DNA of 28,972 nucleotides, taken from IMG/VR virus record IMGVR_UViG_3300002835_000086; one strand, given 5' to 3'. Made by a program: the position numbers and the translations under genes. This document shows positions 5,891-28,972 of the stretch, in pieces. The first letter of the stretch is position 1. Every line of letters starts with the position of its first letter. The stretch is from a virus (lineage: Duplodnaviria; Heunggongvirae; Uroviricota; Caudoviricetes). The notes under the pieces were generated by a model. The model was given only the letters and a program-made list of their open reading frames with translations, made no database searches and was not told the origin of the DNA.

Positions 5891-7882
5891 TTATTGTACT
5901 GTTACTTGTGATGCATTTATTGTATGACTTAATTTAGCCTCTCCTTGATTGTATAACGCTGAACAACAATTACATCCGTTAATTGAAACGTTACTTAAGT
6001 ATACTGTAATATTTTGTGTTACCTCAGTCATACATCCATTAACATTCAACGGAGTGGTTATATTAACATTTGAGTTACAAGCTCCACTTACCACATCACC
6101 AGCAACCATAGTAATTGGGTATGTATTAACATAATCAGTTGTGTATTGGTTATTTGGTGCACAGAATGGTCTTGGGTCAACAGATGACGAACCTGTTGTT
6201 GTAGGTGTAAGTACGTTTGTATTCTTCTTAGTTGTCAGTGTGTAAGTTGCACTACCATCACCAGGTTGTTTTTCAATTTGTTCAACATCGATTCCTAAAT
6301 CAAATGATAATGTAACACCAGGTGATAAAGGTGGCAGTACATTTACTCTCCAAGTAATATTTCTACTAAATGTAGCGTTAGTCGCTTGGGTTAATTGTTG
6401 TATTCCAACTGAGTATGTTACCGGTGATGCTTGTGAAGCAACTACGACAGTTTGTTGGTATTGAGCGTTATTTTGGTCTTTTACCACTACAGAATATGCG
6501 CCAGGACATAATCCGTTTACGACATTGGTTCCATTGAATGTAACTCCGTTATCTGTTGAATATAAATAAGGTCCGATTCCGCCAGATGGTAAAATTGTTA
6601 TCGCTCCATCACAACTACTTAGACAACTTGATGCCTGTGCAGTTACTTTAGCACTTATAACATTAATTGTTGAACAAGTACCAGTGTAAACTGTTACGTT
6701 AGCATTTTTAGTAGCTCCAACAGGATACCATCCTGATAATGGTACTGATGAAGCGTCTTGAGAAGCAACAGTTCCACCATATTGAGTGTAACCAGTTACA
6801 TACCAAGTACTATTCTGTGGGTTCCATACCATACCATAAGTTGAACCATTTGACCAACTTGGTTTACCATTAATACTACCATTCGGGAAGAATTGGATTT
6901 GTTCAGGAGTGTTCTGACCCCATTGGATAAACATACATAAGTTTGGATACACAGGTGTTGCAGATGGTGTGATTGAAGGTGTTGGTGTATTAGTTGGTGT
7001 AGGTGATGGTGCTATTAACGAACAAGATGTATATGCTGTGAAATCACCATAAAAGTCGGATACAACAACTTGGTAAGACCCCCCCTTTAAGTTAAATAAG
7101 TAAGGTGTTTTTTGTCCACCCTCCCAAGTTATATCGTAAGGTGGTGTTCCACCTGTGATAGTTAGATATAATTTACCATCAAAACTTTTTGGTGTTGATG
7201 GGTTAACACCATAACAACTAACTCCCATTGGGAATACTGTGAACACATCACAATCATTCTTTGGGACATAAATAACATTGTTTGTTGGTGTCGGAGTTGG
7301 TGTTGGTGTATTAGTTGGGCTTGAAGTTACGGTTGATGTAACTGTTGGAGTAACTGTAGCAGTTGGTGTTGAATAAGGTGTAGCCGTTGGTGTTTGAGTT
7401 GGGCAAGTTGTAGATGCCGGAACAAATAGTTTTGTAACTCCGTTATGTGGTTTAGTGTAGTCAAATATAATTGTTGTGCCAGAACTTGTTCCATATACAT
7501 AGTTTCCACAACAATCGTAGTAATAACACTTCTCACTAGTCGTATATCCTGAACCACAAACAATAGATGTTGGTGTTGGAGTATAATTAGGTGTTCTAGT
7601 TGGGAATGGTGTTGGTGTTATACTTGGCTCGGGTTCATCAACACAAGGATTTAATAAAATACCATTAAAATTTATAAAACCACTTCCACCATTTTCAATA
7701 TAAACATCTTGACTCGTTGCGTATGAACCACTTTCTTGACAACCACAAACACTATAAAAATTACCAGGTTGTATGGTTGCACTTTGTGATGTAGTTCCAT
7801 CATTACAAGAATACGAATAAAAAATCTGAGGAGATTCAGACTCATTCCATACCATCCATCTAATACAAGTAGTACAAGCCAT
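5891..7882 (-). CDS. Putative virion appendage protein with Pro/Thr linkers, Cys-rich modules and two SprB-type repeats
   Basis: DGKLYLTITGGTPPYDITW...L.GGSYQVVVSD and CDGAITILPSGGIGPYLYSTDNG...L.PGAYSVVVKD; three TPTP-rich linkers. Confidence 0.65.
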   Translation of the reverse strand: MACTTCIRWMVWNESESPQIFYSYSCNDGTTSQSATIQPGNFYSVCGCQESGSYATSQDVYIENGGSGFINFNGILLNPCVDEPEPSITPTPFPTRTPNYTPTPTSIVCGSGYTTSEKCYYYDCCGNYVYGTSSGTTIIFDYTKPHNGVTKLFVPASTTCPTQTPTATPYSTPTATVTPTVTSTVTSSPTNTPTPTPTPTNNVIYVPKNDCDVFTVFPMGVSCYGVNPSTPKSFDGKLYLTITGGTPPYDITWEGGQKTPYLFNLKGGSYQVVVSDFYGDFTAYTSCSLIAPSPTPTNTPTPSITPSATPVYPNLCMFIQWGQNTPEQIQFFPNGSINGKPSWSNGSTYGMVWNPQNSTWYVTGYTQYGGTVASQDASSVPLSGWYPVGATKNANVTVYTGTCSTINVISAKVTAQASSCLSSCDGAITILPSGGIGPYLYSTDNGVTFNGTNVVNGLCPGAYSVVVKDQNNAQYQQTVVVASQASPVTYSVGIQQLTQATNATFSRNITWRVNVLPPLSPGVTLSFDLGIDVEQIEKQPGDGSATYTLTTKKNTNVLTPTTTGSSSVDPRPFCAPNNQYTTDYVNTYPITMVAGDVVSGACNSNVNITTPLNVNGCMTEVTQNITVYLSNVSINGCNCCSALYNQGEAKLSHTINASQVTVQ

Positions 7883-8529
7883 TATACGCAGAGTGTAAAG
7901 TTGATTATGATTCCACTTGAATCTATTTGTACCGCATATGTGTTAGCTCCGAATATCATTTTTCTCCATCTATTACCTTGATTTACAGGGTTGAATAAAC
8001 TACCACCAATGTTTGTTTGATAAACTGTTGCACCTATTACAGGTGTTGATGGTGTCGCAACATAAGAAGTATAGTAATAGTCATCTAAAAGTGTATCCAA
8101 ACACGCACTTGATGAATTAACATATAAATTTCTACCTATTTGATGCGGATAAACCAAACTTGTTGGTGTTGGAGTAGGCGTGTTACTTGATGTAGGTGTT
8201 GGGGTCGCTTGAAGTGTTGTTGAAGGTGTTGGTGTAATACTAGCGGTTGGTGTTGTAGTTGGAGTATGTGTTTGTGTTGGAGTTTGTGTTGGCGTATTAG
8301 TTGGTGTTGGAGTTGGTGTTATGTAAAGAGTCTGATAAACGGTACAACCCGCAGCATCAACAATTTTAATCACAAAGTCTAATGAAGAATATGAATCAGG
8401 AACATCAAATGTATAAGGGGCACTTGCAACAGTTGCAACTGAAACACAGTTCCCACTAAAACTATCGCAATAAAAAACCTCAAACGGTAAGTTTGCTGTA
8501 ATATTAGGTATGGTAACTGTTTGACTCAT
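7882..8529 (-). CDS. Small Pro/Thr-linker putative virion protein (N-domain, TP linker, C-domain)
   Basis: ~50-aa TPTPTPTNTPTQ linker; N-domain homologous to that of 8559..10166; TAATG-coupled to the next gene. Confidence 0.7.
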   Translation of the reverse strand: MSQTVTIPNITANLPFEVFYCDSFSGNCVSVATVASAPYTFDVPDSYSSLDFVIKIVDAAGCTVYQTLYITPTPTPTNTPTQTPTQTHTPTTTPTASITPTPSTTLQATPTPTSSNTPTPTPTSLVYPHQIGRNLYVNSSSACLDTLLDDYYYTSYVATPSTPVIGATVYQTNIGGSLFNPVNQGNRWRKMIFGANTYAVQIDSSGIIINFTLCV

Positions 8530-8535
8530 TTATCT

Positions 8536-8558: not shown

Positions 8559-10166
8559 TTATTGTCTAACTCCAAGTCCTCTGACTCTGTCTGTAAATAT
8601 TGTATTACCATTTGTGGTTGGTGTCCAAATTTCTCCGTCATTTGAAACCGCAAGTTGATTTGTTCCAATACCACCCATAATCCATTGGTTACCGTCCCAA
8701 GCAACTGAATACACTAATACAGTAATTATACCACTAGCGGTACTTGATGGTTGCCAACTGAACCCATCAGTTGAATATGCAATTTTATTTGTCCCTCCAC
8801 CACCGGCTAAGAATCTTAAACCATTGTGAGATACTGCGTATGTATCTGATGTAAATACGGTGTTTCCGTTTGTGGATGCAGACCAAGTAATACCATCGTA
8901 AGAAATTGCAACCTTATTTGTTCCACTTCCAACCGCAACGAATCTATCATTATACCAAACAATACTTCTAACTGCACTGTTTATAATTGAATTACCATTT
9001 GCCGATTGGAACCAAGTAACCCCATTATCATCAGAATAGAATATTGTTTGAGTAACTAAACCTCCAGCTTGTCCACCAATAACCCATCTACTTCCATTTG
9101 AAGCCGTACATAACAGTGCGTTGTTACCAAACACACCACTGGCTGAACTTCCTGTCCAAGTTATACCATCATTAGAATATGCAACTTTTGACGCTCCTGA
9201 ATTAATACCAACCGCCATCCAAAGACCATTATACCAATTCACCCCATAAACCAATGTACCAAATATTGAACTTCCATTCGCCGAGTCGACCCAAGTATCA
9301 CCATCATACGAGTATAGTAACTTGTTAGTACCAGATGCTCCAACAACAAATTTAACACCGTCACTCGCAACGCTCCAAGTTGTACTTGATGCCAAAGCAT
9401 TTCCGTTTGTAGAATTAGTCCAATTTAATCCATCCGTACTATACCCAAGTTTATTAATTGTTCCCGCAGCAACTATCAAAGGAGGTAGTGGTGCGGTTCC
9501 ACTTGGTGTTTGTGTTGGGGTATAACTTGGTGTTGGTGTATTAGTGTTAGTTGGTGTATTAGTTGGTGTATTTGTAGGTGTTTGAGTATTCGTAGGAGTA
9601 TTTGTTGGTGTTTGAGTATTCGTAGGTGTATGTGAAGGAGTATTGGTTGGGGTATTTGAATTTGTAGGAGTATTAGTATTTGTCGCAGTGTTAGTAGGAG
9701 TGTTTGTAGGCGTACTTGAATTTGTTGGGGTATTTGTTGTAGTATTTGTTGGTGTAGTAGTTGTTGTAGGCGTTTGAGTATTTGTCGGTGTATTTGTCGG
9801 AGTATTTGTCGGAGTAGATGTCGGAGTATTTGTTGTAGTATTAGTTGGTGTTACAGTTTGTGTATTTGTATTAGTCGGAGTGTTGGTATTTGTTGGGGTG
9901 TTTGTTGGTGTAGTAGTAGGTGTCGGTGTTGGAGTAGGTGTAAAATATATTAAAGACGTTCCTGTAAGAACACAATTTGACGCATCCACAACTTTCAAAA
10001 CATATTCATCTGAATTATCGTATGGTGATGGTATGTTAAATGTATATGGTATCTCAGAAGTCGTAATTCTATCAATATAAAAACAGCCTGTCCCATCAAA
10101 TTGACAGATGTAAACGTCATAAGGACTTGTTCCTGTTAACCCATTTATTGTTACTTGAATTGCCAT
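8559..10166 (-). CDS. Putative fibre/adhesin: N-domain, ~145-aa Thr/Pro/Asn stalk, 7-repeat Asp-box (BNR) beta-propeller
   Basis: Seven S-x-D-G-x-x-W type repeats (YSTDGLNW, YSYDGDTW, YSNDGITW, YSDDNGVTW, ISYDGITW, YSTDGFSW, VSNDGEIW) at ~44 aa spacing. Confidence 0.72.
   Translation of the reverse strand: MAIQVTINGLTGTSPYDVYICQFDGTGCFYIDRITTSEIPYTFNIPSPYDNSDEYVLKVVDASNCVLTGTSLIYFTPTPTPTPTTTPTNTPTNTNTPTNTNTQTVTPTNTTTNTPTSTPTNTPTNTPTNTQTPTTTTTPTNTTTNTPTNSSTPTNTPTNTATNTNTPTNSNTPTNTPSHTPTNTQTPTNTPTNTQTPTNTPTNTPTNTNTPTPSYTPTQTPSGTAPLPPLIVAAGTINKLGYSTDGLNWTNSTNGNALASSTTWSVASDGVKFVVGASGTNKLLYSYDGDTWVDSANGSSIFGTLVYGVNWYNGLWMAVGINSGASKVAYSNDGITWTGSSASGVFGNNALLCTASNGSRWVIGGQAGGLVTQTIFYSDDNGVTWFQSANGNSIINSAVRSIVWYNDRFVAVGSGTNKVAISYDGITWSASTNGNTVFTSDTYAVSHNGLRFLAGGGGTNKIAYSTDGFSWQPSSTASGIITVLVYSVAWDGNQWIMGGIGTNQLAVSNDGEIWTPTTNGNTIFTDRVRGLGVRQ
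9500..9941 (-). repeat. Degenerate coding repeat (TPTN/TPTQ)n
   Basis: Direct translation; synonymous codons vary, so the repeat is conserved mainly at protein level. Confidence 0.9.
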
Positions 10167-13100
10167 TAGTTACACTCAGTTATTGTTGATGGGGTTATGG
10201 AAATAATTCCGTCTACGATTGAAGTTACAGTATCGTTTAGGTTTGTTGAAGGACATATGTCACAAGTTGTAACAGTATATGTTTTACTAGCAGATGTCTG
10301 ACCTTGTGGTATACTAATAACCAAATTGGTGGTACCATTTCCTAAACAGTCACTAGTTGATAACTCAATTGTTACCGTAACATTTGTAGGTGCCGGATAT
10401 GGTGTTCCACCATTTCTTAGTGTAACCGTTACCTGATTATCTTGTCTTGTATATCCACCACATTGGTCAGGTAAACCTGTTCTAAATATAGATTCGGATA
10501 ATGTAACACATAACGCCAATGGTGACGGTGTTGGTGTTAAACCAGGTGTTTTAGTAACACCAGGTGTTTGAGTTATCAATACCACAGGGTTCGCTAAACA
10601 ATCAACACAATTAGCATAAATGGTTGGTTTATTTAAATTGAAATAATTTCCTGTGAAGTAAGTTAAAATTGTTTGACCTGCAGGGTAGTAATTCAAGAAT
10701 TGTCCAACATAAGTCCAACATTCACCATTTACAGTTTGGAATGTTTGTCCTGTCATAATAGCAAAATTCGTAGGTTGAGTTTGCATTATTGTGGACTGAG
10801 GATAGTTAGACTGATTCAATGCACAAGTTTGGAATACATAAACAAAGTCTGCCGGTGATGCGGTAGGTGTCATAGTTGGGCTTGGAGTTATAGTTGGTGT
10901 CGGTGTGTTTGATGCTGTAACACTTGGTGTAGGTGTCAATGTGAATCTACAATCAGTGCAGTTAGCATAAAGTTGAACAATAGAATTAAGAACCGAGTTT
11001 GGTTGTGTATTACTATCGTTTCTATCATATGTTAAACAGAATAGGTCACCATTCACGTATCCGCCAAAAGTTGTTCCAATTGAAATAGGTATTCCGTTAA
11101 ATGTTAATGTGTCGGATACATAGAACTCAAGATTACTATCACAATCTTTAAGAACTTTAGATGTTGGGCAAGTAAACGCCTCTTCAAAGAATGTATAAAC
11201 TAATTGTCCACCAACTTCAACTGTTCTCGTAGGACTAATCGTAGGAGTCAATGTTGGCGATGGTGTTGTTGGTGTATAAGCTGAGAATGAGAATGACATA
11301 TCACCAGCACAAGTAGATGTTGACGGTGTTGGGGTTGGAGTTGATGGAATAGATGTAACACTAAATGTTACATTATCACAAGTAATCGATGGTGTTGGTG
11401 TTGGGAATGGTACAAAATCACAATCAAAATATGCCGTAAAATCTAAAGTGTTACAATTTACCGAAGAAGGTGTTGGTGTAGGACAAGGTCCTGTTGAGAA
11501 GTAATTAGACGATATGTCGGGACATATTGAATAACAAGGGTATGTCCCCTCTAATAAACAAGTTCCACCTAAAGAATTACTTAAACACCAAACATCACCA
11601 GTATGATAGATGTAACCTGTGGTGATACCGTCTCCTGTATAGTAGAGTCTTGAATTGTATGTTCCAGCAACTTCAAAATTACCACTATAACCTGAAAGGG
11701 TTGGATAGTTTGTTCTAAAACAAAATTCTGTGTATGGACAAGAACTTGGTGTTGATGAAACTGTTGGTGTATTTGTTGGTGTTGGGTTTGGTGTTGGGGT
11801 TGGTGTAGGTGTTAAAACACAACTACTACAATCGCTATATGATGGAACACCTAATGAAGGTCCACCTGGTCCTGAGAATTCAACAAATGAATAACAACTA
11901 CCATTGTAAAGATATGTTGCACCCACAAAAGCAGTGTCAGTGTCAACTAAGGCGTAAAATATGGTACCATCACTACACTTAGTTAACAATGCAGAATCTT
12001 GAGGTCCTGTTCCTGTCGCAGTTGGCGTAGGTGTTGGTGTTCCTGTTGAAGTACTTGTTGGTGTTTGAGTTGGTGTCGGGGTGTTAGTCGCTGTTTGGCT
12101 ATTGGTTGGTGTTACTGTAGGTGTTTGGCTATTGGTTGGTGTTACTGTAGGTGTTGGTGTCACACAAGGAACCGATATCAAACAAGTTGCACAATCGACT
12201 TGTAATGTGAACACAACTCCAACTGAGGAATAAAGATTACCAACAGCTGAATATGGAACCACAGTTCCACAACCATTATATCCTGAACCACCAATTATAC
12301 TATAAACCTGCCCAACTGTTAAAGTTCCTGGAACGTTTTCATATCGGTAATAATTACCGTAACAACAATCTTGAAATAAATAAATGTCATACGGTTCAGT
12401 TGACGTTGGTGTCGGTGTAGGGGTAGTTGTTGTGGTATTTGTGGGTGTTTGAGTCGGAGTAGTTGTTGTGGTATTTGTAGGTGTTTGAGTTGGAGTATTA
12501 GTTGCCGTATTTGTAGGTGTTTGAGTCGGAGTATTAGTTGCCGTATTTGTAGGTGTTTGAGTCGGAGTAGTTGTTGTGGTATTTGTAGGTGTTTGAGTTG
12601 GAGTATTAGTTGCCGTATTTGTAGGTGTTTGAGTCGGAGTAGTTGTTGTGGTATTTGTAGGTGTTTGAGTTGGAGTATTAGTTGCCGTATTAGTTGGTGT
12701 TGGCGTTTGGCTTGCTGTTTGTGTAGGAGTTTGTGTCAATAATGACATACTACAACTTTCACAGTCACCATAAAGTATTTTACTAGCAGGTGTGTCGTCA
12801 GGTGTATTATAACTTAAACCATTATATGTATAACACCCATTTGGGACAATCGAGTTTTGAAAAACTATGTAGAAAACATCAAAAGGTGTTGGTAAACTTG
12901 GTCCCCAATCAATAGTATATGTTACAAACGTATCACAATTAGTGATTGATACTATCGTATAACCTTCTGTTGGTGTTGGTGTCGGAGTGGGTGTATTAGT
13001 TGATGTCGGAGTTGGTGTTGCAGTTGGACATACAATTTCTTCTGTAGATAAACAAGACGCACAATTCGTACCCACACCATAAGAAGTAAACCCATCTAAA

Positions 13101-13546
13101 GGATAACTCCAATTGTATGTTGAGTATGTGTCAGGTTGTACAATTACTGTATAACAAGTATTTTCGGGATTAGACCCACCAGGACTATTAAGTGATAAAT
13201 AAACAACCTCACCTAAAGTCCAAGATATAACACTGCCAGTATTAATCCTCCAATTAGCCCCACCACAACAAGGTTCCAAGTAATATTCAACATCAGAACA
13301 ATATTCTACAGATGTTATTTGTCCTCCACCGCCAGTTATAACATAAATAATTGTCCCATCATTTGGGTCTTGGTAAAACCCATCACTTGCAACTAAAGGA
13401 CCACAAGTTAATCCATCGTATAAGATAGTCCCAACTTGTAACACGGGAGTTATACCATCATCAAATGAAAATGAATCTATAAGTGGTGCAGTGCACGCAG
13501 TTACTTTAGAAGTTAAACTGTAATTTAAGGTAAGACCACTACACAT
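10166..13546 (-). CDS. Large Cys-rich modular putative virion protein with Pro/Thr linkers (1126 aa)
   Basis: Six modules each ending in (N/D)CxxC, separated by TP-rich linkers. Confidence 0.72.
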   Translation of the reverse strand: MCSGLTLNYSLTSKVTACTAPLIDSFSFDDGITPVLQVGTILYDGLTCGPLVASDGFYQDPNDGTIIYVITGGGGQITSVEYCSDVEYYLEPCCGGANWRINTGSVISWTLGEVVYLSLNSPGGSNPENTCYTVIVQPDTYSTYNWSYPLDGFTSYGVGTNCASCLSTEEIVCPTATPTPTSTNTPTPTPTPTEGYTIVSITNCDTFVTYTIDWGPSLPTPFDVFYIVFQNSIVPNGCYTYNGLSYNTPDDTPASKILYGDCESCSMSLLTQTPTQTASQTPTPTNTATNTPTQTPTNTTTTTPTQTPTNTATNTPTQTPTNTTTTTPTQTPTNTATNTPTQTPTNTATNTPTQTPTNTTTTTPTQTPTNTTTTTPTPTPTSTEPYDIYLFQDCCYGNYYRYENVPGTLTVGQVYSIIGGSGYNGCGTVVPYSAVGNLYSSVGVVFTLQVDCATCLISVPCVTPTPTVTPTNSQTPTVTPTNSQTATNTPTPTQTPTSTSTGTPTPTPTATGTGPQDSALLTKCSDGTIFYALVDTDTAFVGATYLYNGSCYSFVEFSGPGGPSLGVPSYSDCSSCVLTPTPTPTPNPTPTNTPTVSSTPSSCPYTEFCFRTNYPTLSGYSGNFEVAGTYNSRLYYTGDGITTGYIYHTGDVWCLSNSLGGTCLLEGTYPCYSICPDISSNYFSTGPCPTPTPSSVNCNTLDFTAYFDCDFVPFPTPTPSITCDNVTFSVTSIPSTPTPTPSTSTCAGDMSFSFSAYTPTTPSPTLTPTISPTRTVEVGGQLVYTFFEEAFTCPTSKVLKDCDSNLEFYVSDTLTFNGIPISIGTTFGGYVNGDLFCLTYDRNDSNTQPNSVLNSIVQLYANCTDCRFTLTPTPSVTASNTPTPTITPSPTMTPTASPADFVYVFQTCALNQSNYPQSTIMQTQPTNFAIMTGQTFQTVNGECWTYVGQFLNYYPAGQTILTYFTGNYFNLNKPTIYANCVDCLANPVVLITQTPGVTKTPGLTPTPSPLALCVTLSESIFRTGLPDQCGGYTRQDNQVTVTLRNGGTPYPAPTNVTVTIELSTSDCLGNGTTNLVISIPQGQTSASKTYTVTTCDICPSTNLNDTVTSIVDGIISITPSTITECN
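12423..12691. repeat. 36-bp tandem repeat, 7 units plus a partial, two alleles; encodes 12-aa TPTQTPTNT(TTT/ATN)
   Basis: Units start GTGTTTGAGT at 12445, 12481, 12517, 12553, 12589, 12625, 12661; allele order A,B,B',A,B,A,B. Confidence 0.92.
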
Positions 13547-13640: not shown

Positions 13641-13880
13641 ATGGTAGTTTATTCTATAATAAAGGTGTTGTTTGTAATATTTATAATTGTGAGACTAATA
13701 AAAACAATTAAGAAGGTTATTGAAGAGGCGGAGGACAGATATCTCTCAGCTTGTGATAATGGTGTGTCTTTAGAAGAATTGGATAAGTTAGAGGAAAATT
13801 ATAAAAAATCCTTAAAGCTTATGAATATGTTAGAGTCAAAAAAACTCAACGAGGACACTCAGAAAAATAAGAAATTATAA
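13641..13880 (+). CDS. Small hypothetical protein, N-terminal hydrophobic helix plus charged helical tail
   Basis: VVYSIIKVLFVIFIIVRLI then a Glu/Lys-rich segment; fills the gap between opposite-strand genes; stop shares the palindrome TTATAA with the kinase stop. Confidence 0.6.
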   Translation: MVVYSIIKVLFVIFIIVRLIKTIKKVIEEAEDRYLSACDNGVSLEELDKLEENYKKSLKLMNMLESKKLNEDTQKNKKL

Positions 13881-20598: not shown

Positions 20599-21435
20599 TT
20601 ATTTAGGGTTTGTTATGGACAATGCGATTTCAACTAAATTGTCAATAACTTTTTTATATTCAATATATGGTCTTGGACAATGAGCATCAATATAATATCC
20701 ATTTTTAAGTTTTTCCCAATCAAACACGCCATCGTTTAATTGAGCCGTAATCTCTAAATTATTATTTAATATTACGGGAAAATTATGTCTGTTAATTCTT
20801 TTTTCCGCTTTCCATGGAGAAGAATACCCTCTCTTAAATTTATGAACTTCAACACCATGAATATTTTCATTAACATTTTGACCAAAATAAATTTCATCAG
20901 TTCCCCACCCTAATTTCAACACTCCCAATTCATGAGCGTATTGACTGAATGGTCTATCAGTATCTAAAATTTTATTAAAAGTTGAACCTTTTCCAATATT
21001 GTAACAAATTGGGTATCTATTTTCACAAGGTTCATTATGATTTTGGCACTCTGGTCTTTCTAATGAGTATGCATCTTCATCTAAAATCACCAAAGAATTA
21101 TCATCAATATCTTTAATTTTATCAATAAACCAATCTCTGTTTATAATAATCATATCAATGTCATTGGTCATGCAAACATCATTTGGAAAATATTTTGTTC
21201 CATACATTCTAACAATTTGACTTAAAAACGAAGTGATAATACCTGGACAATTATTTCTATTTATTTTTTTTACAATTCCATTACCATCATCATAAAAATC
21301 ACTATCTTCATTTGTAATATGAAATAATACGGGTTGAGCATTAAATAATTTTTTAATTATTTTTGATTGGATTGGCCAAAAATTTTGGTATAATGGATTG
21401 TCATCCACACCAAAAATTACTTTATCTATCTTCAT
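20599..21435 (-). CDS. Family B putative DxD glycosyltransferase (paralog of the N-domain of 18443..20587)
   Basis: [48 protein letters not shown] shared between the two copies. Confidence 0.55.
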
Positions 21436-21976
21436 AAAATTTTTCTATAAATTCATCAATGTTGTTTGACCACATAGTCATCGCATTATCTTTAATTTTT
21501 TGTTCATCCCAATTCCACCAAGCAATAGATAATAATTTTTTAATTTGCTCGTCACTAAACCTATACTTAACAACTTTGGCTGGATTACCAGCAACAATCG
21601 CATATGGTGGTACGTCTTTACTTACAACAGAACCAGCCGCAACTATCGCTCCGTTACCAATTCTAACTCCTGACATTATAGTTGCTGTTGCCCCAATCCA
21701 AACATCATTTTCAATTATAATATCTCCTTTACAAGATGGATGTCCCATATCCATATGCATCTGAGCAATCTCATTAGTTACAGGACCCCACAGTTGGGAT
21801 GATGTTGTAACCCAATCGGGTCTATGATTTGCGTGTAGAAAAAAATTACAGTCTCTACCTATTGAATTGTACTTACCAATCCTTACGTGGTATTGGTCAC
21901 TCCAAGAAATTATGTTTACGTGTCTGTCAAAATAGGTTCCCCTGTCTGCGTGCCAAAGATGTATGTTTTCTATCAT
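21422..21976 (-). CDS. CatB/Vat-like (XAT) hexapeptide-repeat O-acetyltransferase
   Basis: [55 protein letters not shown]. Confidence 0.85.
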
Positions 21977-21977
21977 A

Positions 21978-22964
21978 TTATTCGTTTACTCTAAAACTCA
22001 TTAGTTTAAAAATTTCCCTGTCTTCATCGGATTTTAAATAAAATGTATCCCTTATCACATCATTCTCTAACACAATAATGGAATTAATTTCTTCAAGTTT
22101 ACCTAAGAAAACAATATTCCAATGATAATGATGGACTAATGGTATGTGAACTAATTTTGAACCATTAATAATAATTTTATATTCCAAACCATTTTTATTA
22201 GTTGTATTCCATGATATGAAATCAACATTACCTGTTAAATGGTCGTAATACGGTAAAGACCATGGGTTTTTATTTATTGATTGACTATTAATAACACCAA
22301 AAAAATTACCTTTTTCTTCTAAAACATTTCTGTTTTTAACAACAACACTACCTGAGTCTTCAATTAACTTAAGTAATAAACCTTCAGGTGATTTTGATAT
22401 TGCACCTCTAATTAAATCTTTAATTTTATCTTCATCCAATTCAATTAACATTGAATGTATTTTTGGGATATAGTATGATTGAAAACTACCGAACATTACT
22501 TCCGCAACTTTATCTTGGATGTCCATATAAACCACTGCACTATTTGTTTCTAATAAATCACTGTTTTCAACAAACTCGGATATTTCATTGATTTGACAAT
22601 CATACTCTATATGGTGAACTTTAGTAAACCCTAAGTTTTTAGCATTACTAAAACCTAAAATCATTAATCTCCATATAGCTAAGTGAGTGTTTTTTTTACT
22701 TAGAAAAGATGATTGGATTCTTCTGTTTCCTTCAGGTACAAACCAAGGTTGGTTTAATAAATCCCAATCAGTTAATATTTCATTTTTCTTATCATAGAAT
22801 GAAAATTCTACTTTATTTTGAATATCAATCGGTACTGGTGTATGACTAACAATCATTACCTCAAAATAATCTTTATATTTTTCTAATGAAGAAACTAAAT
22901 TCCTTAAAATATTTTCTCTATTATCATCAGGACAATACGCGGTAATTAAAATCAAATCTTTCAT
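21978..22964 (-). CDS. Orphan family A protein, possibly GT-A-like (paralog of 17466..18446)
   Basis: [17 protein letters not shown]; HHIEYD; see paralog. Confidence 0.5.
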
Positions 22965-23542
22965 TATTTAATATTTTTTGTGGGAACACCTCCATATACA
23001 CCAGGTGATTCAATATGTTTGACAACCGCACTATTCATACCAATTGTTACCAAACTATGTATTGATAATTTTTCTCGGATTGAGGAATTATTACCCATAT
23101 AAACAAGGTCGTATATTTTTACATTACCAGACACAATTGCACCTGGCATTGCACTAAAGTAATCACCAATTTCACAATCGTGACCAATATGGTTACCTCT
23201 ATTTAAAATTGCGTGTTTACCTATTTTTATATTTGTAGTTAGTATTGAATATGCACCAACAAAACTACCTTCTCCGATTTCAATGTTGTTATCCATAATT
23301 AACACTGTTGGATGAACCCAAGTAAAATATTTAGTCTCCTTGGGTAGTCTTTGGATAATATCAAATCTATCTCTTGAATCTGCAACCGCAACCATTATCG
23401 CATATTCTTTGGGGTTAAACTCAGATAGTGGTCTTGTTCCTTCTACAACATATTTGTCATCAACAAAACAAGTCAATTCCACCCCCATTTGAGCCATCAC
23501 CTCTTTAGCGTGACCACCATATCCAACTAATGCTTTTTTCAT
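22964..23542 (-). CDS. PglD/NeuD-family sugar N/O-acetyltransferase
   Basis: GYGGHAKEV N-terminal motif, WVHPT, left-handed beta-helix hexapeptides (IGEGSFVG, IGKHAILN, IGHDCEIG), GVPTK. Confidence 0.85.
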   Translation of the reverse strand: MKKALVGYGGHAKEVMAQMGVELTCFVDDKYVVEGTRPLSEFNPKEYAIMVAVADSRDRFDIIQRLPKETKYFTWVHPTVLIMDNNIEIGEGSFVGAYSILTTNIKIGKHAILNRGNHIGHDCEIGDYFSAMPGAIVSGNVKIYDLVYMGNNSSIREKLSIHSLVTIGMNSAVVKHIESPGVYGGVPTKNIK

Positions 23543-24183
23543 TGTTTATAAACGTCAAATTTAGATAAGTCAGGATATGGTAATTCTAAATCCTGATTAT
23601 GTTTTTTCGAACCGTCAATATTATAAAACTGATTCATCAACAGCATCCCTCTTGCCGCCAACTCAGGCATCATATAAAAGTTCCAACCAATCATATCCAA
23701 GTAATCATCGTGATATGAACATTCTCTTCTTCCACTATAACGAGCTCTCTTAAACCAATGATAAGCATCCAAACTATCCGTCAAAATTGCACCACCCTTA
23801 CTAAGTTTAAAATGTTTATAAGGTCCAGTAAAAGAAACACAAATGTGTTGGTCAGGTTTATACATATCGGCAGTAAAACTTAGTGCTGAGTCCCAAACAT
23901 TACTTCCTTTTAGTTGGTACATACCTTTAATTGTTTTACCCTCAACAGGTTCAAAATCAACCTTTAGCCCTGCGTGAATAATCTCACAAGGAACCGATGG
24001 GTATGTTCTACAAGGAATTGTTATCTTATCTGAAGTAATACTTTTCTTAACATTTTTTTCATAATATAACGCCAAGAACAAAGCGTTACTCATATTATCG
24101 AGAGTCACCACATACGGAGCTCCCGTATAATCTGCAAGTGCCTTCTCGAAATCTTCTGTAATTTTATAAATACCGTTTGCCAT
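23539..24183 (-). CDS. DegT/DnrJ/EryC1/StrS PLP-dependent sugar aminotransferase, short form (214 aa)
   Basis: FEKALADYTGAPYVV, TYPSVP, WDSA (PLP Asp), SFTGPYKHF...GGAIL (PLP Lys), GWNFYM. Confidence 0.78.
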   Translation of the reverse strand: MANGIYKITEDFEKALADYTGAPYVVTLDNMSNALFLALYYEKNVKKSITSDKITIPCRTYPSVPCEIIHAGLKVDFEPVEGKTIKGMYQLKGSNVWDSALSFTADMYKPDQHICVSFTGPYKHFKLSKGGAILTDSLDAYHWFKRARYSGRRECSYHDDYLDMIGWNFYMMPELAARGMLLMNQFYNIDGSKKHNQDLELPYPDLSKFDVYKQ

Positions 24184-24184
24184 A

Positions 24185-24221
24185 TATTGAAAAAATAAGA
24201 TAAATCAGTATCTTTTCAATA
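24185..24221. promoter_or_regulatory. Divergent intergenic inverted repeat, with a near-consensus + strand promoter
   Basis: TATTGAAAA...TTTTCAATA (9 bp IR) with inner AAGATA/TATCTT; + strand ATTG-N19-TATCTTTT ahead of ATG 24240. Confidence 0.35.
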
Positions 24222-24239
24222 ATCATATTCAATTATTAT

Positions 24240-26531
24240 ATGGAAAAACCAAAAATTTATCTTCACGGTTCTTATATTGGAACAACAGGTTACAATAACC
24301 ACACTCGTGATTTTTTAAGAGAATTAGTTAAACACACACCTGTTAAGGTTAGAAACTTTACTGTTGGTAGCACTTGGGATGGTTATAATCCAACCCCCCA
24401 CGATAACGAACCATACATTAATGATGTTGATAAATCAATGTTGTATAAACAAATTTTATACAACTCTGAAGGTAAGTTATCAGATTACGATATCTACCCT
24501 GACAAATCAAAAGAGTTTTTTCCTGATGTGAATATTGTATTGAGTGAGACTAATCACCATATATTCTATCACGATTATATTGGTCCAAAGATTGCTTATA
24601 ACGTATGGGAATCTACTCTTCAACCTAAAGAGTTTTTCAATGAACTTTTGAAATACGATGAGATTTGGGTTCCGAGTAAATGGCAAATGGAATGTACCAT
24701 CAACCAAGGTGCAACCCCTGATAAAGTTAAGGTGGTCCCTGAGGGTGTCGATATCCATACATTCTTCCCTGAAGATGTTGAGAAATTGGAACAATACAAT
24801 GATGGTAGATTTAAATTCTTATTATTTGGTCGATGGGATTATAGAAAATCAACCAAGGAGATTATTGAAACTTTCTTGAAAACATTTTCTTCGGATGAAC
24901 CTGTGGATTTGGTTGTATCGATTGACAATATGTGGGGTGAAGAGATGGATGGTTATAAAACCACCGAAGAAAGATTGGTAGGTTATGGTTTAACAGACCC
25001 AAGAATCAAAATGATTCACTTCCCAACTCGTGAGGATTATATCAAATACCTTAAAACAGGACACGTATTTGTTTCTTGCGCACGTTCTGAAGGATGGAAT
25101 CTACCTCTTATTGAAGCGATGGCTTGTGGTACCCCATCTATTTATTCAGAGTGTTCTGCTCAAATGGAGTTTGCTGAAGGTAGAGGTATTCCTGTTAAGA
25201 TTATAGGTGAAAAACTTGCAAGCGCAAATGACTACGGTAGATATACAATGAGTGATTTACCAGGAAACTATTACGAACCTGATTTTGTGGACTTGTCAAG
25301 ACAGATGAGATATACGTATGAGAACTATAAAGAATGTAAATTAAAAGCCGTTCAAGACTCAATAGAAATTCATAAAGAATTCTCTTGGGAACGAATTGGT
25401 GAGATTGGTTACAAAACAGTTGTTGATTTTATGAAAAATTATAAATCCACTGATGCGGATACCAATAAAATTATGGTTTCATATCTTGATGGTCCAAAAG
25501 TTGAAATTGTGGGTGCTGAAGACAGAACTTATTTAATTGAGTTTTTGGATGAAAATGATGCTGTAATTCATTCACATACAATGAAAAATAATCATTGGGT
25601 TCAATGTGGTAGAAAATATTACACCAAATGGAAAATCCGTGTTAATGGTAAAATTGTTGAGGAGTTAGATTTAACAGGAAAAAGAGTTTTAATCTCTTTT
25701 GAATCAAAATCAATTGGTGATACAATTGCTTGGGCACCTTACGCTGTTGAGTTTCAAAAGAAACATAACTGCCAAGTTATTCTAAGCACATTTCATAACA
25801 AATGGTTTAAACAAAACCCTAACTATCAGGATATTGAATTTATCGAACCTGGTATGGTCACAAATTGTCACGCACTTTATAGGATTGGTTGGATTAAATC
25901 TGACGAAGGTAAGTGGAACAAATATGATTCTTACCCTAACCCGATTCAAACTTTACCATTACAACAAACTGCAACAGACATCCTTGGTTTAAATTATGTT
26001 GAAAGAAACTACGGTTTATACTTTGATGTTAAACCGAGAACAATCAAAAACAAATATGTTGTTTTAGCCCCCGAGTCGACTGCAGGTTGTAAAGAATGGA
26101 CTTATGAAGGGTGGTGTTATTTGACAGACCAATTAATTAAAAAAGGTTATGAAGTCGTCATTTTAACAACAAAACCATATCAAGTAAAAGGTGCAAAATG
26201 TATTCACGGTAAACCATTAAACGACGCTCTTAATATCCTTTATCATTCAGAATTCTTGGTTTCGCCAAGTTCAGGTATGGCTTGGATGAATTGGGGTGTT
26301 GGTAAACACACTGTAATGATTAGTGGATTTACACCTAAACATCACGAGTTCCAAACTAATATTACAAGAATTATTAATGAACATTCTTGTAACTCTTGTT
26401 GGGCAAATATCAACTTTAAGTTTGACCCAGGAGATTGGGATTGGTGTCCAATTTGGAAAGGTACCGAAAAACAACACATTTGTGAAAAATCAATTTCGCC
26501 ACTAACAGTTCTTAATAGTTTACCAATATGA
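24240..26531 (+). CDS. Fusion of GT4 glycosyltransferase and Aah/TibC-type autotransporter O-heptosyltransferase
   Basis: N-half: TTGY, VWE, VPSKWQ, PEGVD, GRWDYRK, EGWNLPLIEAMACG (GT4). C-half from ~25473: N-terminal barrel ending RKYYTKWKI, RVLISFESKSIGDTIAWAPY..FQKKHNC, ESTAGCKEW, SSGMAW, ISGFT, CNSCW-x15-C-x11-C four-Cys iron finger. Confidence 0.88.
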   Translation: MEKPKIYLHGSYIGTTGYNNHTRDFLRELVKHTPVKVRNFTVGSTWDGYNPTPHDNEPYINDVDKSMLYKQILYNSEGKLSDYDIYPDKSKEFFPDVNIVLSETNHHIFYHDYIGPKIAYNVWESTLQPKEFFNELLKYDEIWVPSKWQMECTINQGATPDKVKVVPEGVDIHTFFPEDVEKLEQYNDGRFKFLLFGRWDYRKSTKEIIETFLKTFSSDEPVDLVVSIDNMWGEEMDGYKTTEERLVGYGLTDPRIKMIHFPTREDYIKYLKTGHVFVSCARSEGWNLPLIEAMACGTPSIYSECSAQMEFAEGRGIPVKIIGEKLASANDYGRYTMSDLPGNYYEPDFVDLSRQMRYTYENYKECKLKAVQDSIEIHKEFSWERIGEIGYKTVVDFMKNYKSTDADTNKIMVSYLDGPKVEIVGAEDRTYLIEFLDENDAVIHSHTMKNNHWVQCGRKYYTKWKIRVNGKIVEELDLTGKRVLISFESKSIGDTIAWAPYAVEFQKKHNCQVILSTFHNKWFKQNPNYQDIEFIEPGMVTNCHALYRIGWIKSDEGKWNKYDSYPNPIQTLPLQQTATDILGLNYVERNYGLYFDVKPRTIKNKYVVLAPESTAGCKEWTYEGWCYLTDQLIKKGYEVVILTTKPYQVKGAKCIHGKPLNDALNILYHSEFLVSPSSGMAWMNWGVGKHTVMISGFTPKHHEFQTNITRIINEHSCNSCWANINFKFDPGDWDWCPIWKGTEKQHICEKSISPLTVLNSLPI

Positions 26532-27274
26532 TAGATTTATCAAACTTTGATTGGGGATGGATGAATCGTCCTGTTGAATACGATGTTGATGGTCAAGTAG
26601 AATATCTTTGGCACATAAATCCTAATGGGTCTAAAACTCATATGAGTGAATATCACAAAAACTCAATAATCAAAGAAATTTTTGAAGATAAATGTTACGA
26701 ACAATTTTTTGAGGTTGAGGAGGGTGATACTGTTTTAGATGTTGGTGCGAGTGTTGGTCCATTTACATATTCAATATTACACAAAAAACCAAAACAAGTT
26801 TATTGTTTTGAACCAAGCGAAAGAGAGTTTAAAACTTTGGTTAAAAACCTAAAGGGTCATCAAGTAATACCAATCCCAAAAGGTATATCAAATGTAAGCT
26901 CAATCGTTAAAAGTGATATGTTGTTTGGTGGCGAGGATGAAATGGAAACACTAACATTTAATCGTTTTATAAATCTGTACAACGTAGATAAAATAGATTT
27001 TATTAAGACTGATTGTGAGGGTGGTGAATATGATATTTTCACTCAAGATAATTTAGACTTTCTTCAAAATAATGTTAAAAAAATTGTTGGTGAGTGGCAT
27101 TTAAGAAGTCCCCAACTTAAAGATAAGTTTAGAAATTTCAGGGATAATATATTACCATACTTTAAACGATATAAAATATTTTCTGTTGATGGTATTGATA
27201 TTGCTTGGGATTTGTGGAACGACCATTTCATTGAGTATTATAATGAGGTCATAATACACATTGATAATCGTTAA
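26528..27274 (+). CDS. FkbM-family SAM methyltransferase
   Basis: VLDVGASVGPFT, YCFEP, DFIKTDCEGGEYDI; ATGA-coupled to the heptosyltransferase. Confidence 0.85.
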   Translation: MIDLSNFDWGWMNRPVEYDVDGQVEYLWHINPNGSKTHMSEYHKNSIIKEIFEDKCYEQFFEVEEGDTVLDVGASVGPFTYSILHKKPKQVYCFEPSEREFKTLVKNLKGHQVIPIPKGISNVSSIVKSDMLFGGEDEMETLTFNRFINLYNVDKIDFIKTDCEGGEYDIFTQDNLDFLQNNVKKIVGEWHLRSPQLKDKFRNFRDNILPYFKRYKIFSVDGIDIAWDLWNDHFIEYYNEVIIHIDNR

Positions 27275-27276: not shown

Positions 27277-27310
27277 AAAAAAGGGAGTCGTTTGACTCCC
27301 TTTTCTTTTA
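27277..27310. terminator. Bidirectional intrinsic terminator
   Basis: AAAAAA-GGGAGTC-GTTT-GACTCCC-TTTTCTTTT between convergent genes. Confidence 0.9.
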
Positions 27311-27314
27311 TATC

Positions 27315-28970
27315 TTATTCCTGTATCGGTTTGTATTCTAACAGAACCTTTGGAACATCCTTACGTTCTGCGAAGACTGTGTAGAAACAATTTGGAGTTC
27401 CATCTTGACAGTTGATGTAAACCTTATTGTTTTCAATCTTCTCAACCCAATGAACACAAGGTCCTCCGATTGGTGTGAGTTGGACTGACCAATCTGTGTC
27501 GTGAACAAGTCCTACCCAATAATCAGGGAGTTCAATCACTTTACTTGTTGCGTGTCCTCTGAAATAAACTCCATGTTCTGGACCTTCCAAGTTTCCATAT
27601 CTTAATCTCCACCCTTCTTTAGTTGGGTGAGGGATGTCGAACGATTTACTGTTTGCAGATATATTATTAAAGTTATTGATGTTTGCAACACCACCACCTT
27701 GGATGTTACCAACCGCAGCACTCATGTCAATATCACCACCAACAAGGACAATATTACCACCCGCAACTTCAACATTTCCACCATTGGTATCAATGGTTCC
27801 ACCGCCAGTGTCAATTCCACCTCCCGTAGTACTCAAGGTCGTACCGTCCCACGTTAAGTTGGTTTCTGCATTTAATTCACCCGCGGTGTTACTACCTGTA
27901 ATAACTCTATTATCAGCGTTATTGTTGATAGTTGCTGCTCCTGAAGTACCCGATGAACCACTTGAGCCAGATGTTCCTGATGAACCTGAAGTACCACTTG
28001 AGCCAGATGTTCCTGATGAACCTGAAGTTCCACTTGAACCTGATTTACCTGAAGAACCTGAGCTTCCGCTAGTTCCTGAAGAACCACTTGAGCCAGATGT
28101 TCCTGAAGAACCACTTGAACCTGATGTTCCTGAACTTCCTGAAGTACCAGATGAACCTGATGTTCCCGAACTTCCTGAAGTACCGCTTGAACCACTTGAG
28201 CCAGATGTTCCTGAACTTCCTGAAGTACCGCTTGAACCTGATGTTCCCGAACTTCCGCTAGTTCCTGATGAACCACTTGAGCCAGATGTTCCTGAACTTC
28301 CTGAAGTACCAGATGAACCTGATTTACCTGAAGAACCTGAGCTACCACTAGTTCCTGAAGAACCACTTGAGCCAGATGTTCCCGATGAACCACTTGTTCC
28401 ACTTGAACCTGAACTTCCGCTTGTTCCTGAAGAACCACTTGAACCTGAAGTACCAGATGAACCTGATGTACCTGATGAACCACTTGAACCGCTAGTTCCT
28501 GAAGAACCTGATGTACCTGATGAACCTGAGCTTCCGCTAGTTCCTGATGAACCTGAGCTACCTGATGTACCAGAACTTCCTGAAGTACCAGATGAACCTG
28601 AAGAACCACTTGTTCCACTTGAACCTGATGTACCACTTGAACCTGAGCTTCCGCTAGTTCCTGATGAACCACTTGAGCCAGATGTTCCCGAACTTCCTGA
28701 AGTACCAGATGAACCTGAAGTACCACTTGAACCTGAAGAACCGCTAGTTCCTGATGAACCTGAAGTACCACTTGAACCTGAAGTACCACTTGAACCTGAG
28801 CTTCCGCTAGTTCCTGATGAACCACTTGAGCCAGATGTTCCTGAAGAACCTGAAGTACCACTTGAGCCAGATGTTCCTGATGAACCTGATTTACCACTTG
28901 AACCAGAACTTCCTGAAGTACCACTTGAACCTGAAGAACCGCTAGTTCCTGATGAACCTGAAGTACCACT
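27315..28970 (-). CDS. Tail fibre-like protein, 5' end beyond window; (Gly-X-Ser)n shaft, INNNADNRVIT neck, Gly-rich heptads, conserved C-terminal KxFxIxHP...LEGPE domain
   Basis: The frame of track ORF 27315..27836 continues upstream without stop: ...SGTSGSSGTSG AATINNNADNRVITGSNTAGELNAETNLTWDGTTL STTGGGIDTGGG...KSFDIPHPTKEGWRLRYGNLEGPEHGVYFRG. At least 551 aa. Confidence 0.85.
   Translation of the reverse strand, partial: SGTSGSSGTSGSSGSSGTSGSSGSSGKSGSSGTSGSSGTSGSSGTSGSSGSSGTSGSSGSSGTSGSSGTSGSSGTSGSSGSSGTSGSSGTSGSSGTSGSSGSSGTSGSSGSSGTSGSSGTSGSSGSSGTSGSSGTSGSSGSSGTSGSSGSSGTSGSSGTSGSSGSSGTSGSSGTSGSSGSSGTSGSSGSSGTSGSSGTSGSSGSSGTSGSSGSSGKSGSSGTSGSSGTSGSSGSSGTSGSSGTSGSSGTSGSSGTSGSSGSSGTSGSSGTSGSSGTSGSSGTSGSSGSSGTSGSSGSSGTSGSSGSSGKSGSSGTSGSSGTSGSSGTSGSSGTSGSSGSSGTSGAATINNNADNRVITGSNTAGELNAETNLTWDGTTLSTTGGGIDTGGGTIDTNGGNVEVAGGNIVLVGGDIDMSAAVGNIQGGGVANINNFNNISANSKSFDIPHPTKEGWRLRYGNLEGPEHGVYFRGHATSKVIELPDYWVGLVHDTDWSVQLTPIGGPCVHWVEKIENNKVYINCQDGTPNCFYTVFAERKDVPKVLLEYKPIQE
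27939..28970 (-). repeat. Gly-X-Ser triplet array (GSS/GTS, rare GKS), at least 114 triplets
   Basis: Gly codons from 28967 to 27941 in a 9-nt register (1026/9 = 114); no Pro seen. Confidence 0.95.
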
Positions 28971-28972
28971 TG

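Follow-up and report, generated by a model that had tools for sequence, protein, structure and literature searches.

A putative phage-encoded protein O-glycosylation cluster beside a proline-free collagen-like fibre gene

Introduction

The closest described counterparts of the system considered here are the TibC–TibA and Aah–AIDA-I pairs of Escherichia coli (bacterial autotransporter heptosyltransferases, BAHT; TIGR04414; PDB entries 4rap and 4rb4; PMC4358343), in which a soluble cytoplasmic enzyme uses ADP-heptose to hyper-modify a neighbouring Ser/Thr-rich repetitive fibre-like protein. The locus analysed is contained in IMG/VR virus record IMGVR_UViG_3300002835_000086, a stretch of 28,972 bases with a G+C content of ∼33% (hereafter the window), in which a cluster of 16 genes (13875–27274) lies between a collagen-like fibre gene and four genes for proteins with Thr/Pro linkers (TP1–TP4). 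The cluster encodes a TibC-type domain fused to a GT4 glycosyltransferase domain and is read here as a phage-encoded cytoplasmic protein O-glycosylation system, the main acceptor of which would be the phage's own proline-free (Gly-Ser/Thr-Ser)n fibre, with the TP proteins as probable second acceptors; this reading is judged fairly probable.

The window enzyme shares with TibC and Aah the family assignment, the catalytic Asp, the donor-site Thr/Lys/Trp, the Cys4 finger and the N-terminal β-barrel, and like them it would be soluble, cytoplasmic and directed at a repetitive neighbour. It differs from them in being phage-encoded and GT4-fused, in the deletion of the thumb and in the lack of conservation of Arg-286. 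The acceptor of TibC and Aah is the β-helical passenger of an autotransporter, whereas a collagen-like fibre (perhaps together with Thr/Pro linkers) is proposed here, and while Aah and TibC add single heptoses the window cluster would extend and decorate the sugar.

The serine-rich-repeat adhesins of streptococci and staphylococci are glycosylated in the cytoplasm by GT4-family priming enzymes (GtfA/GtfB), followed by GtfC and GlyD/GlyE. Their islands appear alike in logic, with a Ser-rich repeat fibre, a GT4 primer and stepwise soluble GT-A (GT8-like) enzymes beside the substrate; this likeness is one of organization and of fold matches (GlyE for the protein at 21978–22964), not of sequence homology. 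Unlike them, the window has no GtfB chaperone or accessory Sec, priming would probably be by heptose through a BAHT enzyme and the substrate is of collagen type. O-glycosylation of Gly-X-Thr repeats on Thr is known from the exosporium proteins BclA and BclA3 of Bacillus and Clostridioides and from the cuticle collagen of Riftia, in which the sugar stands in for hydroxyproline in stabilizing the helix. Those systems differ from the window in using rhamnosyl- and GlcNAc-transferases and SgtA, in having cellular substrates and in having repeats that contain proline.

To our knowledge, the glycosylation of mycobacteriophage virions is the only characterized precedent in a bacteriophage. In these phages the C-termini of the capsid and tail-tube proteins are O-glycosylated by phage glycosyltransferases, according to the account in a citing paper (Freeman 2023, cited in PMC12619734), so that an initial reading of the window from its sequence alone, which had known of no characterized bacteriophage equivalent, was mistaken on this point. 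The phage modifies its own structural proteins there, as is proposed here; the actinophage acceptors differ, and neither a BAHT enzyme nor a heptose pathway nor a collagen-like fibre is mentioned in the citing text (PMC12619734). The window is resembled by Mimivirus L230 and by giant-virus fibril clusters (PMC4691112) in that a virus encodes collagen-like proteins together with the enzymes that glycosylate them, and the giant viruses likewise possess nucleotide-sugar pathways, pairs of amino-sugar aminotransferases and acetyltransferases and methylated sugars on their virion fibres. L230, from a eukaryotic virus, hydroxylates Lys and glucosylates hydroxylysine, whereas in the window Ser/Thr are the likely sites and there is no hydroxylase; a closer analogue of L230 is found in loci of other phages with proline-containing (Pro-type) fibres, which carry a fusion of GT4, GT25 and 2-oxoglutarate (2OG)-dependent oxygenase domains. 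No paper was found in which phage fibres are connected with TibC-type enzymes or with heptose.

Results

The GT4–TibC protein

The protein encoded at 24240–26531 contains two glycosyltransferase domains and is followed by a methyltransferase gene.

24240–25439, plus strand: GT4 (retaining GT-B) domain, N-terminal to the TibC domain in one protein (PF00534, PF13692; phrog_2170)
25449–26531, plus strand: TibC/Aah-type (BAHT) domain with a β-barrel, a GT-B core and a Cys4 iron finger (TIGR04414)
26528–27274, plus strand: FkbM-family methyltransferase (PF05050, TIGR01444), the start of which overlaps the GT4–TibC stop

Residues 408–759 score 221.7 bits against TIGR04414, the Aah/TibC equivalog (cut-off 200), and align with TibC (PDB entry 4rap) over ∼350 residues (TibC residues 17–376, E = 5.5e-38), whereas the models of the lipopolysaccharide (LPS) heptosyltransferases WaaC and WaaQ reach only 15–19 bits on the same protein. 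The essential residues of TibC are the catalytic Asp-110, Thr-226, Lys-230, Trp-305, Arg-286 and the iron-finger cysteines Cys-339/342/358/370 (PMC4358343). D494 (25719–25721) is aligned with Asp-110 and is invariant in 77 distinct phage homologues; T614, K618 and W682 correspond to Thr-226, Lys-230 and Trp-305, the Lys and Trp being invariant in the same set and the Thr conserved. The four finger cysteines are represented by C717, C720, C736 and C748 (26388–26483), which are again invariant in the 77 homologues, and an iron finger is predicted. The catalytic Asp, the Thr/Lys/Trp of the donor site and these cysteines are retained across 110 phage loci. On this profile and alignment evidence the C-terminal domain is a true member of the BAHT family.

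The position of TibC Pro-300 is occupied by Ser in the window, as in Aah, and by Ser or Gly, never by Pro, across the 77 homologues. Aah can use ADP-D,D- as well as ADP-L,D-heptose owing to its residue at this position (PMC4358343), and a Ser here fits a phage that encodes its own 6-epimerase. Transfer of heptose from ADP-heptose to Ser/Thr by the window domain is predicted in the context of the heptose genes of the cluster and of a compact module in locus L269 (see below).

Searching IMG/VR with the TibC domain brought up at least 158 viral relatives, and 80 loci were fetched; loci are cited below by L numbers. The GT4 and TibC domains are encoded in one open reading frame (ORF) in 76 of the 80, the other four being cut by contig ends. 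In other lineages FkbM–GT4–TibC (L092 and L123) or FkbM–GT32–GT4–TibC occur as single proteins of 1229–1451 residues, an FkbM–GT4–TibC protein is also found in phage Mel-JY01 (see below), and these fusions tie the separate FkbM gene of the window to the same pathway.

The collagen-like fibre and its association with TibC

The fibre gene converges on the FkbM gene at the right-hand end of the window.

27315–28972, minus strand, 5′ end beyond the window: collagen-like fibre gene (Pfam Collagen, PF01391, E = 2.3e-50; PHROG tail-fibre families)

The visible residues 2–346 (∼27933–28967) form 115 uninterrupted Gly-X-Y triplets, in which Y is Ser in 114 cases and Ala in one, in agreement with the tract of at least 114 Gly-X-Ser repeats that had been reported for this flank from the sequence alone. 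X is Ser in 67 triplets, Thr in 44, Lys in three and Ala in one. The 230 X/Y positions include just three Lys and not one Pro, so that the usual stabilization of the helix by proline or hydroxyproline or by charge pairs is missing and triple-helix formation by the window fibre is conjectural. The C-terminal globular domain (∼27315–27842) was found in 457 viral stretches; a PDB sequence search with it gave nothing useful. A plus-strand ORF at 27634–28971 and a minus-strand ORF at 27872–28969 were rejected as wrong-frame artefacts of the repeat.

TibC homologues are carried both by abundant aquatic myoviruses and by giant phages, and two contexts can be distinguished: the sugar islands of giant phages, as in the window, and a widespread myovirus group with fixed synteny, in which the order is collagen-like fibre, modification genes, GT4–TibC, tail sheath, tube and baseplate hub. 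A collagen-like ORF lies within the fetched flank in 33 of the 80 TibC loci, most of the remainder having too little upstream flank to tell; in 15 of the 80 the fibre is of the Ser/Thr type, often exactly 70 bp upstream and on the same strand. Fifty TibC-less loci anchored on related non-collagen fibres contain a collagen-like ORF in six cases and one of the Ser/Thr type in none. On a tree of 110 TibC domains a Ser/Thr-fibre neighbour is found in at least nine separate clades, in both tandem and convergent orientations and with unrelated fibre C-terminal domains (Peptidase_S74 in L027). There is no autotransporter in the window, and the recurrent neighbours of TibC are collagen-like fibres.

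The chemistry of the fibre is tracked by the hydroxylase genes: 2OG–Fe(II) oxygenase genes are present at all 18 loci with a Pro-type fibre and at none of the 15 with a Ser/Thr-type fibre. One such oxygenase from a Pro-type locus is fused to GT4 and GT25 domains. This 776-residue GT4–GT25–2OG–Fe(II) oxygenase protein is encoded in L038 (5075–8021; also in L071, L075, L040 and others) with a separate P4H-like oxygenase, between a Gly-Pro-X collagen fibre and GT4–TibC and just upstream of the tail sheath; by analogy the set looks like a collagen hydroxylation and glycosylation system of the animal or Mimivirus L230 kind in phages.

In L269 a compact module is found in which TibC is followed directly by homologues of the heptose nucleotidyltransferase and kinase and converges on a Ser/Thr collagen fibre. 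A cultured representative is also available. The Microcystis phage Mel-JY01 (PP395634.1, L282) encodes a 1226-residue FkbM–GT4–TibC protein (4750–8430), and ∼1.7 kb upstream of it, in the plus frame 2–3052, there is a gene for a Gly-[ST]-Ser fibre, at least 1016 residues long and cut by the start of the record; as a cultured phage it makes the fibre-glycosylation hypothesis directly testable. The GenBank annotation of Mel-JY01 shows antisense hypothetical ORFs across the fibre (1–651 and 739–2298, minus strand, Pro/Val/Glu-rich), an artefact of the same kind as the wrong-frame ORFs of the window.

The Thr/Pro proteins

The opposite flank of the cluster is formed by four genes.

10166–13546, minus strand: TP4, 1126 residues, 50 Cys, globular modules with Thr/Pro linkers (assigned by composition)
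8559–10166, minus strand: TP3, an N-domain (conserved in L091, L123, L283 and L285), a Thr/Pro/Asn linker of ∼140 residues and a C-terminal repeat domain
7882–8529, minus strand: TP2, 215 residues, central Thr/Pro linker (homologues of 46–53% identity in L091, L123, L283 and L285)
5891–7882, minus strand: TP1, 663 residues, 25 Cys, Thr/Pro linkers and SprB-like repeats (SprB 27 bits, just below the cut-off)

All four contain 15–21% Thr and 7–10% Pro, with long Thr/Pro runs joining globular modules, and thus match the four Thr/Pro-stalk proteins of the sequence-only reading. Homologues that keep the Thr/Pro runs adjoin TibC and the Ser/Thr fibre in L091, L123, L092–L100, L283, L285 and L286; those of TP4 (46–57% identity) stand beside TibC in L091, L123, L092–100, L283, L285 and L286, and those of TP1 were found in L283 and L285 (39–41% identity). 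The sandwich order is kept in L283 and L285, which have the same backbone as the window (fibre, GT4–TibC, sugar island, TP4, TP3, TP2, TP1, a 722-residue protein, RuvC-like protein, primase and exonuclease) and in which the size of the sugar island is the sole variable. L286, which likewise preserves the succession of fibre, TibC, variable sugar island, TP4 to TP1, 722-residue protein and replication genes, has a stand-alone TibC gene directly upstream of its TP4 homologue. No signal-peptide-like N-terminus was seen in the four TP proteins. The cysteines of TP4 and TP1 are concentrated in the globular modules between the linkers, which suggests that these modules are stabilized by disulfides or by metal.

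The putative heptose donor pathway

Three genes of the cluster have heptose-pathway enzymes as both their best family and their best PDB matches (HldA, HldC and HldD).

13875–14660, minus strand: HldE domain I/HldA-like heptose-7-phosphate kinase, PfkB-type, 261 residues (TIGR02198, rfaE_dom_I, 112 bits against a cut-off of 345)
14635–15060, minus strand: HldE domain II/HldC-like heptose-1-phosphate adenylyltransferase (TIGR02199, rfaE_dom_II, 86.9 bits against a cut-off of 181.5)
16180–17001, minus strand: HldD-like ADP-glycero-manno-heptose 6-epimerase (TIGR02197, 193 bits against a cut-off of 274.6)

The kinase, which is shorter than usual, has HldA (4e84) as its best PDB match and a visible GAGD motif; the nucleotidyltransferase has the HldC-type structure 5x9q and a visible HxGH motif. 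For the epimerase the top four PDB matches are all AGME (1eq2, E = 4.7e-32) and the GalE model reaches only 44 bits. The heptose nucleotidyltransferase is missing from most complete TibC-bearing giant phage genomes, so the donor pathway is accessory, and presumably it replaces or boosts the ADP-heptose supply of the host.

The heptose kinase and nucleotidyltransferase also have homologues in L120, L134 (for example at 19058–20210) and L141, near non-collagen fibres that carry the C-terminal domain of the window fibre, with no TibC within 10 kb of the heptose genes. These phages may have another user of heptose.

Glycosyltransferases and tailoring enzymes

According to the ORF map the 16 genes of the cluster are packed with almost no gaps, 13 of them on the minus strand and those for the SET-domain, GT4–TibC and FkbM proteins on the plus strand. 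The glycosyltransferase genes in addition to GT4–TibC are as follows.

21978–22964, minus strand: putative GT-A glycosyltransferase with a C-terminal β-sandwich, phage-only family (AlphaFold2 pLDDT 82), paralogue of 17466–18446
20599–21435, minus strand: putative GT-A glycosyltransferase with a DxD motif (D92, D94; AlphaFold2 pLDDT 80.5, pTM 0.85)
18443–20587, minus strand: three-domain enzyme with a GT-A domain and two class I S-adenosylmethionine methyltransferase domains (PF13578, PF13847; phrog_21658 in two stretches)
17466–18446, minus strand: putative GT-A protein, paralogue of the 21978–22964 family (alignment A1)

Structures were predicted for two orphan families on the basis of small alignments, and the models of 20599–21435 and 21978–22964 match GT8, GT2 and GT25 structures. 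For 21978–22964 Foldseek returned glycogenin, TarS/TarP, GlyE and COLGALT1 at E values of ∼3e-6; for 20599–21435 it returned LgtC (GT8; E = 2.5e-6, TM score 0.50), and the DxD motif is invariant in the alignment of this family (A2). The N-domain of 18443–20587 is 55% identical to 20599–21435, of which it is a paralogue, and the protein at 17466–18446 shares an N-terminal motif and an invariant Asp with the 21978–22964 family (A1) and has homologues in 14 related loci. Judged by the predicted structures, both orphan families are GT-A-fold glycosyltransferases of putative activity, as had been proposed from their DxD motifs. The cluster thus has six glycosyltransferase domains (GT4, TibC-type and four GT-A-fold, paralogues counted).

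The following genes would supply an amino sugar and modify the glycan or other targets.

23539–24183, minus strand: DegT/PseC-like aminotransferase, short, 214 residues (PF01041, E = 1.4e-10, N-terminal part only)
22964–23542, minus strand: NeuD/PglD/VioB-type sugar N-acetyltransferase (TIGR03570, 146 bits, cut-off 161; PglD_N and Hexapep)
21422–21976, minus strand: hexapeptide-repeat O-acetyltransferase, Vat/CatB-like (NF000311, 137 bits, below the cut-off; Hexapep)
17048–17449, plus strand: SET-domain protein, putative protein lysine methyltransferase (PF00856, E = 2.6e-15)
15426–16178, minus strand: possible sulfotransferase of a phage family, 250 residues (neighbours in language-model features include Sulfotransfer_1/3 clusters at 0.96)
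15033–15425, minus strand: small cupin, candidate sugar isomerase or epimerase (Cupin_2, E = 1.2e-7; weak matches to mannose-6-phosphate isomerase and WbuC)

Four methyltransferase domains (SET gene included) and two acetyltransferases are therefore encoded. The Pfam DegT profile has 360 positions against 214 residues for the window protein, but this length recurs in L004, L031, L061, L087 and L090 at 74–76% identity, always beside a NeuD-type acetyltransferase; judging by this recurrence, the protein is a conserved minimal form and not a pseudogene. The protein at 15426–16178 has no Pfam, NCBIfam or PHROG match (PF00685 and PF13469 included), and motifs read in it by eye resemble loops that bind 3′-phosphoadenosine-5′-phosphosulfate; its identity as a sulfotransferase is only a lead. 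The cluster first described from the sequence alone, with donor synthesis, transferases and tailoring enzymes, is in this way confirmed by the ORF map and the family assignments; the sulfation part of the tailoring set is unproven.

The cupin is flanked by the genes for the heptose nucleotidyltransferase and the possible sulfotransferase, and a PDB sequence search with it was uninformative. Because GmhA is absent it is a candidate isomerase, and one may speculate that it is a non-orthologous sedoheptulose-7-phosphate isomerase, with chemistry like that of mannose-6-phosphate isomerase, or a heptose 3,5-epimerase. The SET gene stays adjacent to the heptose epimerase in L001–L004, on the strand opposite to most of the island; beside it may be noted that three Lys and one Ala are the sole X residues of the fibre other than Ser/Thr.

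No membrane-spanning segment was found in any cluster protein, and no flippase, polymerase or initiating phosphoglycosyltransferase was named in the Pfam, NCBIfam and PHROG scans of the cluster, which argues for soluble, on-protein assembly; the cluster likewise contains no membrane protein or lipid-carrier enzyme. Lipid-linked polysaccharide synthesis was rejected as a role, none of its hallmark genes being present.

Discussion

Proposed mechanism

From gene content and comparison we infer a glycan on proteins of the window phage or of its relatives, together with its acceptor, sugar, order of steps and benefit. A raised ADP-heptose pool would come from the kinase and adenylyltransferase of the split HldE-like pair and from the HldD-like epimerase, the isomerase and phosphatase steps being supplied by the host or possibly by the cupin. 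The TibC-type domain would then move heptose onto the Ser/Thr hydroxyls of nascent fibre chains, and the fused GT4 domain and the four GT-A-fold domains would lengthen the glycan, in which an N-acetylated amino sugar may be present; it would then be decorated by methyl- and acetyltransferases and perhaps by a sulfotransferase. The fibre and the TP proteins would be located on the virion. It may benefit the phage by stabilizing the triple helix in the stead of hydroxyproline, by protecting against proteases or by aiding adhesion; among the purposes named from the sequence alone, stiffening, protease resistance and camouflage are guesses.

A wider scheme can be drawn, in which hydroxyproline is replaced by an O-glycan based on heptose and bearing methyl, acetyl and possibly sulfate groups, dense glycosylation of the Ser/Thr is required for the fibre to form or keep its triple helix, lineages switch between Pro with a hydroxylase and Ser/Thr with TibC, and the same enzyme coats the linkers of the four TP proteins to form a mucin-like surface. 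This scheme is tentative and, taken as a whole, doubtful.

That the phage glycosylates its own Ser/Thr-rich appendages, as the sequence-only reading held, has strong support from comparative genomics for the fibre, namely the recurrence over at least nine clades, the fusions, the L269 module and the tracking of hydroxylase genes; for the TP proteins the support is conserved synteny only, and their role as second acceptors is probable at that level. This dependence on synteny is one of several points that weigh against the proposed system. In the enzyme, the position of Arg-286 is Ala in the window and Val, Thr, Ile or Ser in other phage homologues, and nine residues are missing relative to TibC where the β-hairpin thumb would be, a deletion shared by most phage homologues. 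The thumb (Phe-265/Val-266) builds the dodecamer ring of TibC (PMC4358343), and assembly and donor binding would therefore differ from those of TibC. In the donor pathway all three heptose enzymes score below the NCBIfam trusted cut-offs and are therefore divergent members or close relatives of their families; neither GmhA nor GmhB is encoded in the window (no SIS or HAD match), and GmhA is absent from the records of five relatives, one of them 100% complete.

The fibre comparisons have their own limits. When the contrast was anchored on the fibre, TibC was nearby in 22 of 28 Ser/Thr-collagen fibres and in none of 47 others, yet all Ser/Thr-collagen fibres form one clade on the tree of fibre C-terminal domains, so that these counts amount to a single independent contrast, one event and not statistical proof. 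Gly-Ser/Thr-Ser fibres are moreover common in viral contigs, and TibC was present in only seven of 120 stretches selected by a Gly-[ST]-[ST] DNA pattern scan; the stretches were uneven with short flanks and do not allow a fair estimate of how often TibC accompanies such fibres. TibC is also retained next to Pro-type fibres poor in Ser/Thr and may therefore have another acceptor there.

Alternative explanations

In the conventional interpretation such a cluster would remodel the host surface (LPS core, O-antigen, capsule or an autotransporter or adhesin) in order to block superinfection or change the receptor, its adjacency to the fibre reflecting a habit of accessory genes. The glycosyltransferases and rfaE in the tail-fibre cluster of pelagimyophages are usually explained in this way (PMC7029224), ADP-heptose is the donor for the LPS core, and the acetyl- and methyltransferases resemble O-antigen tailoring enzymes. 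However, the priming enzyme belongs to a protein-specific family, with the BAHT profile far above WaaC/WaaQ in score, and the cluster encodes neither membrane proteins nor a flippase, polymerase or lipid-carrier enzyme; nor would remodelling of the host surface explain the 70 bp adjacency to Ser/Thr fibres over at least nine clades or why hydroxylase genes go with one fibre chemistry and not with the other, and it is considered unlikely. Modification of the phage DNA (base glycosylation) against restriction is very improbable: phage glycosyltransferases often act on DNA and the cluster adjoins replication genes, but the Pfam and NCBIfam scans yielded no match to a base hydroxymethylase, to a dNMP kinase or to any DNA-glycosyltransferase family, the families that were identified are protein- or sugar-directed, and a nucleotide-heptose pathway, amino-sugar enzymes and O-methyl/O-acetyl tailoring are foreign to known DNA hypermodification.

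The persistence of TibC beside Pro-type fibres with few Ser/Thr could instead mean that the enzymes glycosylate other phage proteins (capsid, sheath/tube or decoration proteins), as in the mycobacteriophages, and that the fibre is a mere syntenic neighbour. The acceptors there are capsid and tail-tube C-termini, by the account cited above (PMC12619734), and in the myovirus group the genes for the tail sheath and tube have GT4–TibC immediately upstream of them. The giant-phage lineages, the window included, have no sheath, tube or capsid gene nearby, with the Ser/Thr fibre and the TP proteins as constant neighbours; some contigs with a Pro-type fibre beside TibC also hold a Ser/Thr-type fibre farther off (L113, L115 and L117 on the contigs of L074, L071 and L072, respectively). 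Acceptors of this kind in place of the fibre are thus rated quite unlikely, and O-glycosylation of the phage's own fibre is preferred.

Significance

If confirmed, the fibre system would extend protein O-heptosylation for the first time beyond bacterial autotransporters and would be a second, mechanistically different route by which a bacteriophage glycosylates its own particle. New are the encoding of a heptose pathway by the phage, the island's size and the link to the TP proteins, while virion glycosylation as such was already known from mycobacteriophages; with its own donor pathway and large tailoring set, the window is richer than any other example found to date. If the reading is true, 'LPS-like' glycosyltransferase and rfaE genes in tail-fibre regions would be read as self-modification and not as modification of the host surface, the phages would offer a natural test of sugars replacing hydroxyproline in collagen folding, and soluble enzymes would be at hand for glycosylating designed collagen-like materials.

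Other features of the window

The genes at the left-hand end of the window are of phage type and include an exonuclease (phrog_298), a primase and a weak match to a RuvC-like resolvase. Its closest relatives are viral contigs of IMG/VR, several kinds of length being represented and some being complete (295–321 kb). A megablast of 20 kb of the window against GenBank phages gave no match, and no tRNAs were found. A scan of genome contigs returned one contig of a metagenome-assembled genome, which resembles a phage fragment and is uninformative on cellular relatives or the host.

A promoter and terminator scan of the window gave background levels except for two hairpins.

27279–27304, between the convergent FkbM and fibre genes: hairpin of 11 pairs, candidate bidirectional terminator by consensus match only

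The second, a perfect hairpin at 17453–17482, lies where the SET gene and 17466–18446 converge and is also a candidate bidirectional terminator. The 722-residue protein encoded at 3693–5861 (minus strand) has no family, PHROG or PDB match; it directly follows TP1 in L283 and L285 (64–67% identity) and may be a structural protein belonging to the TP block.

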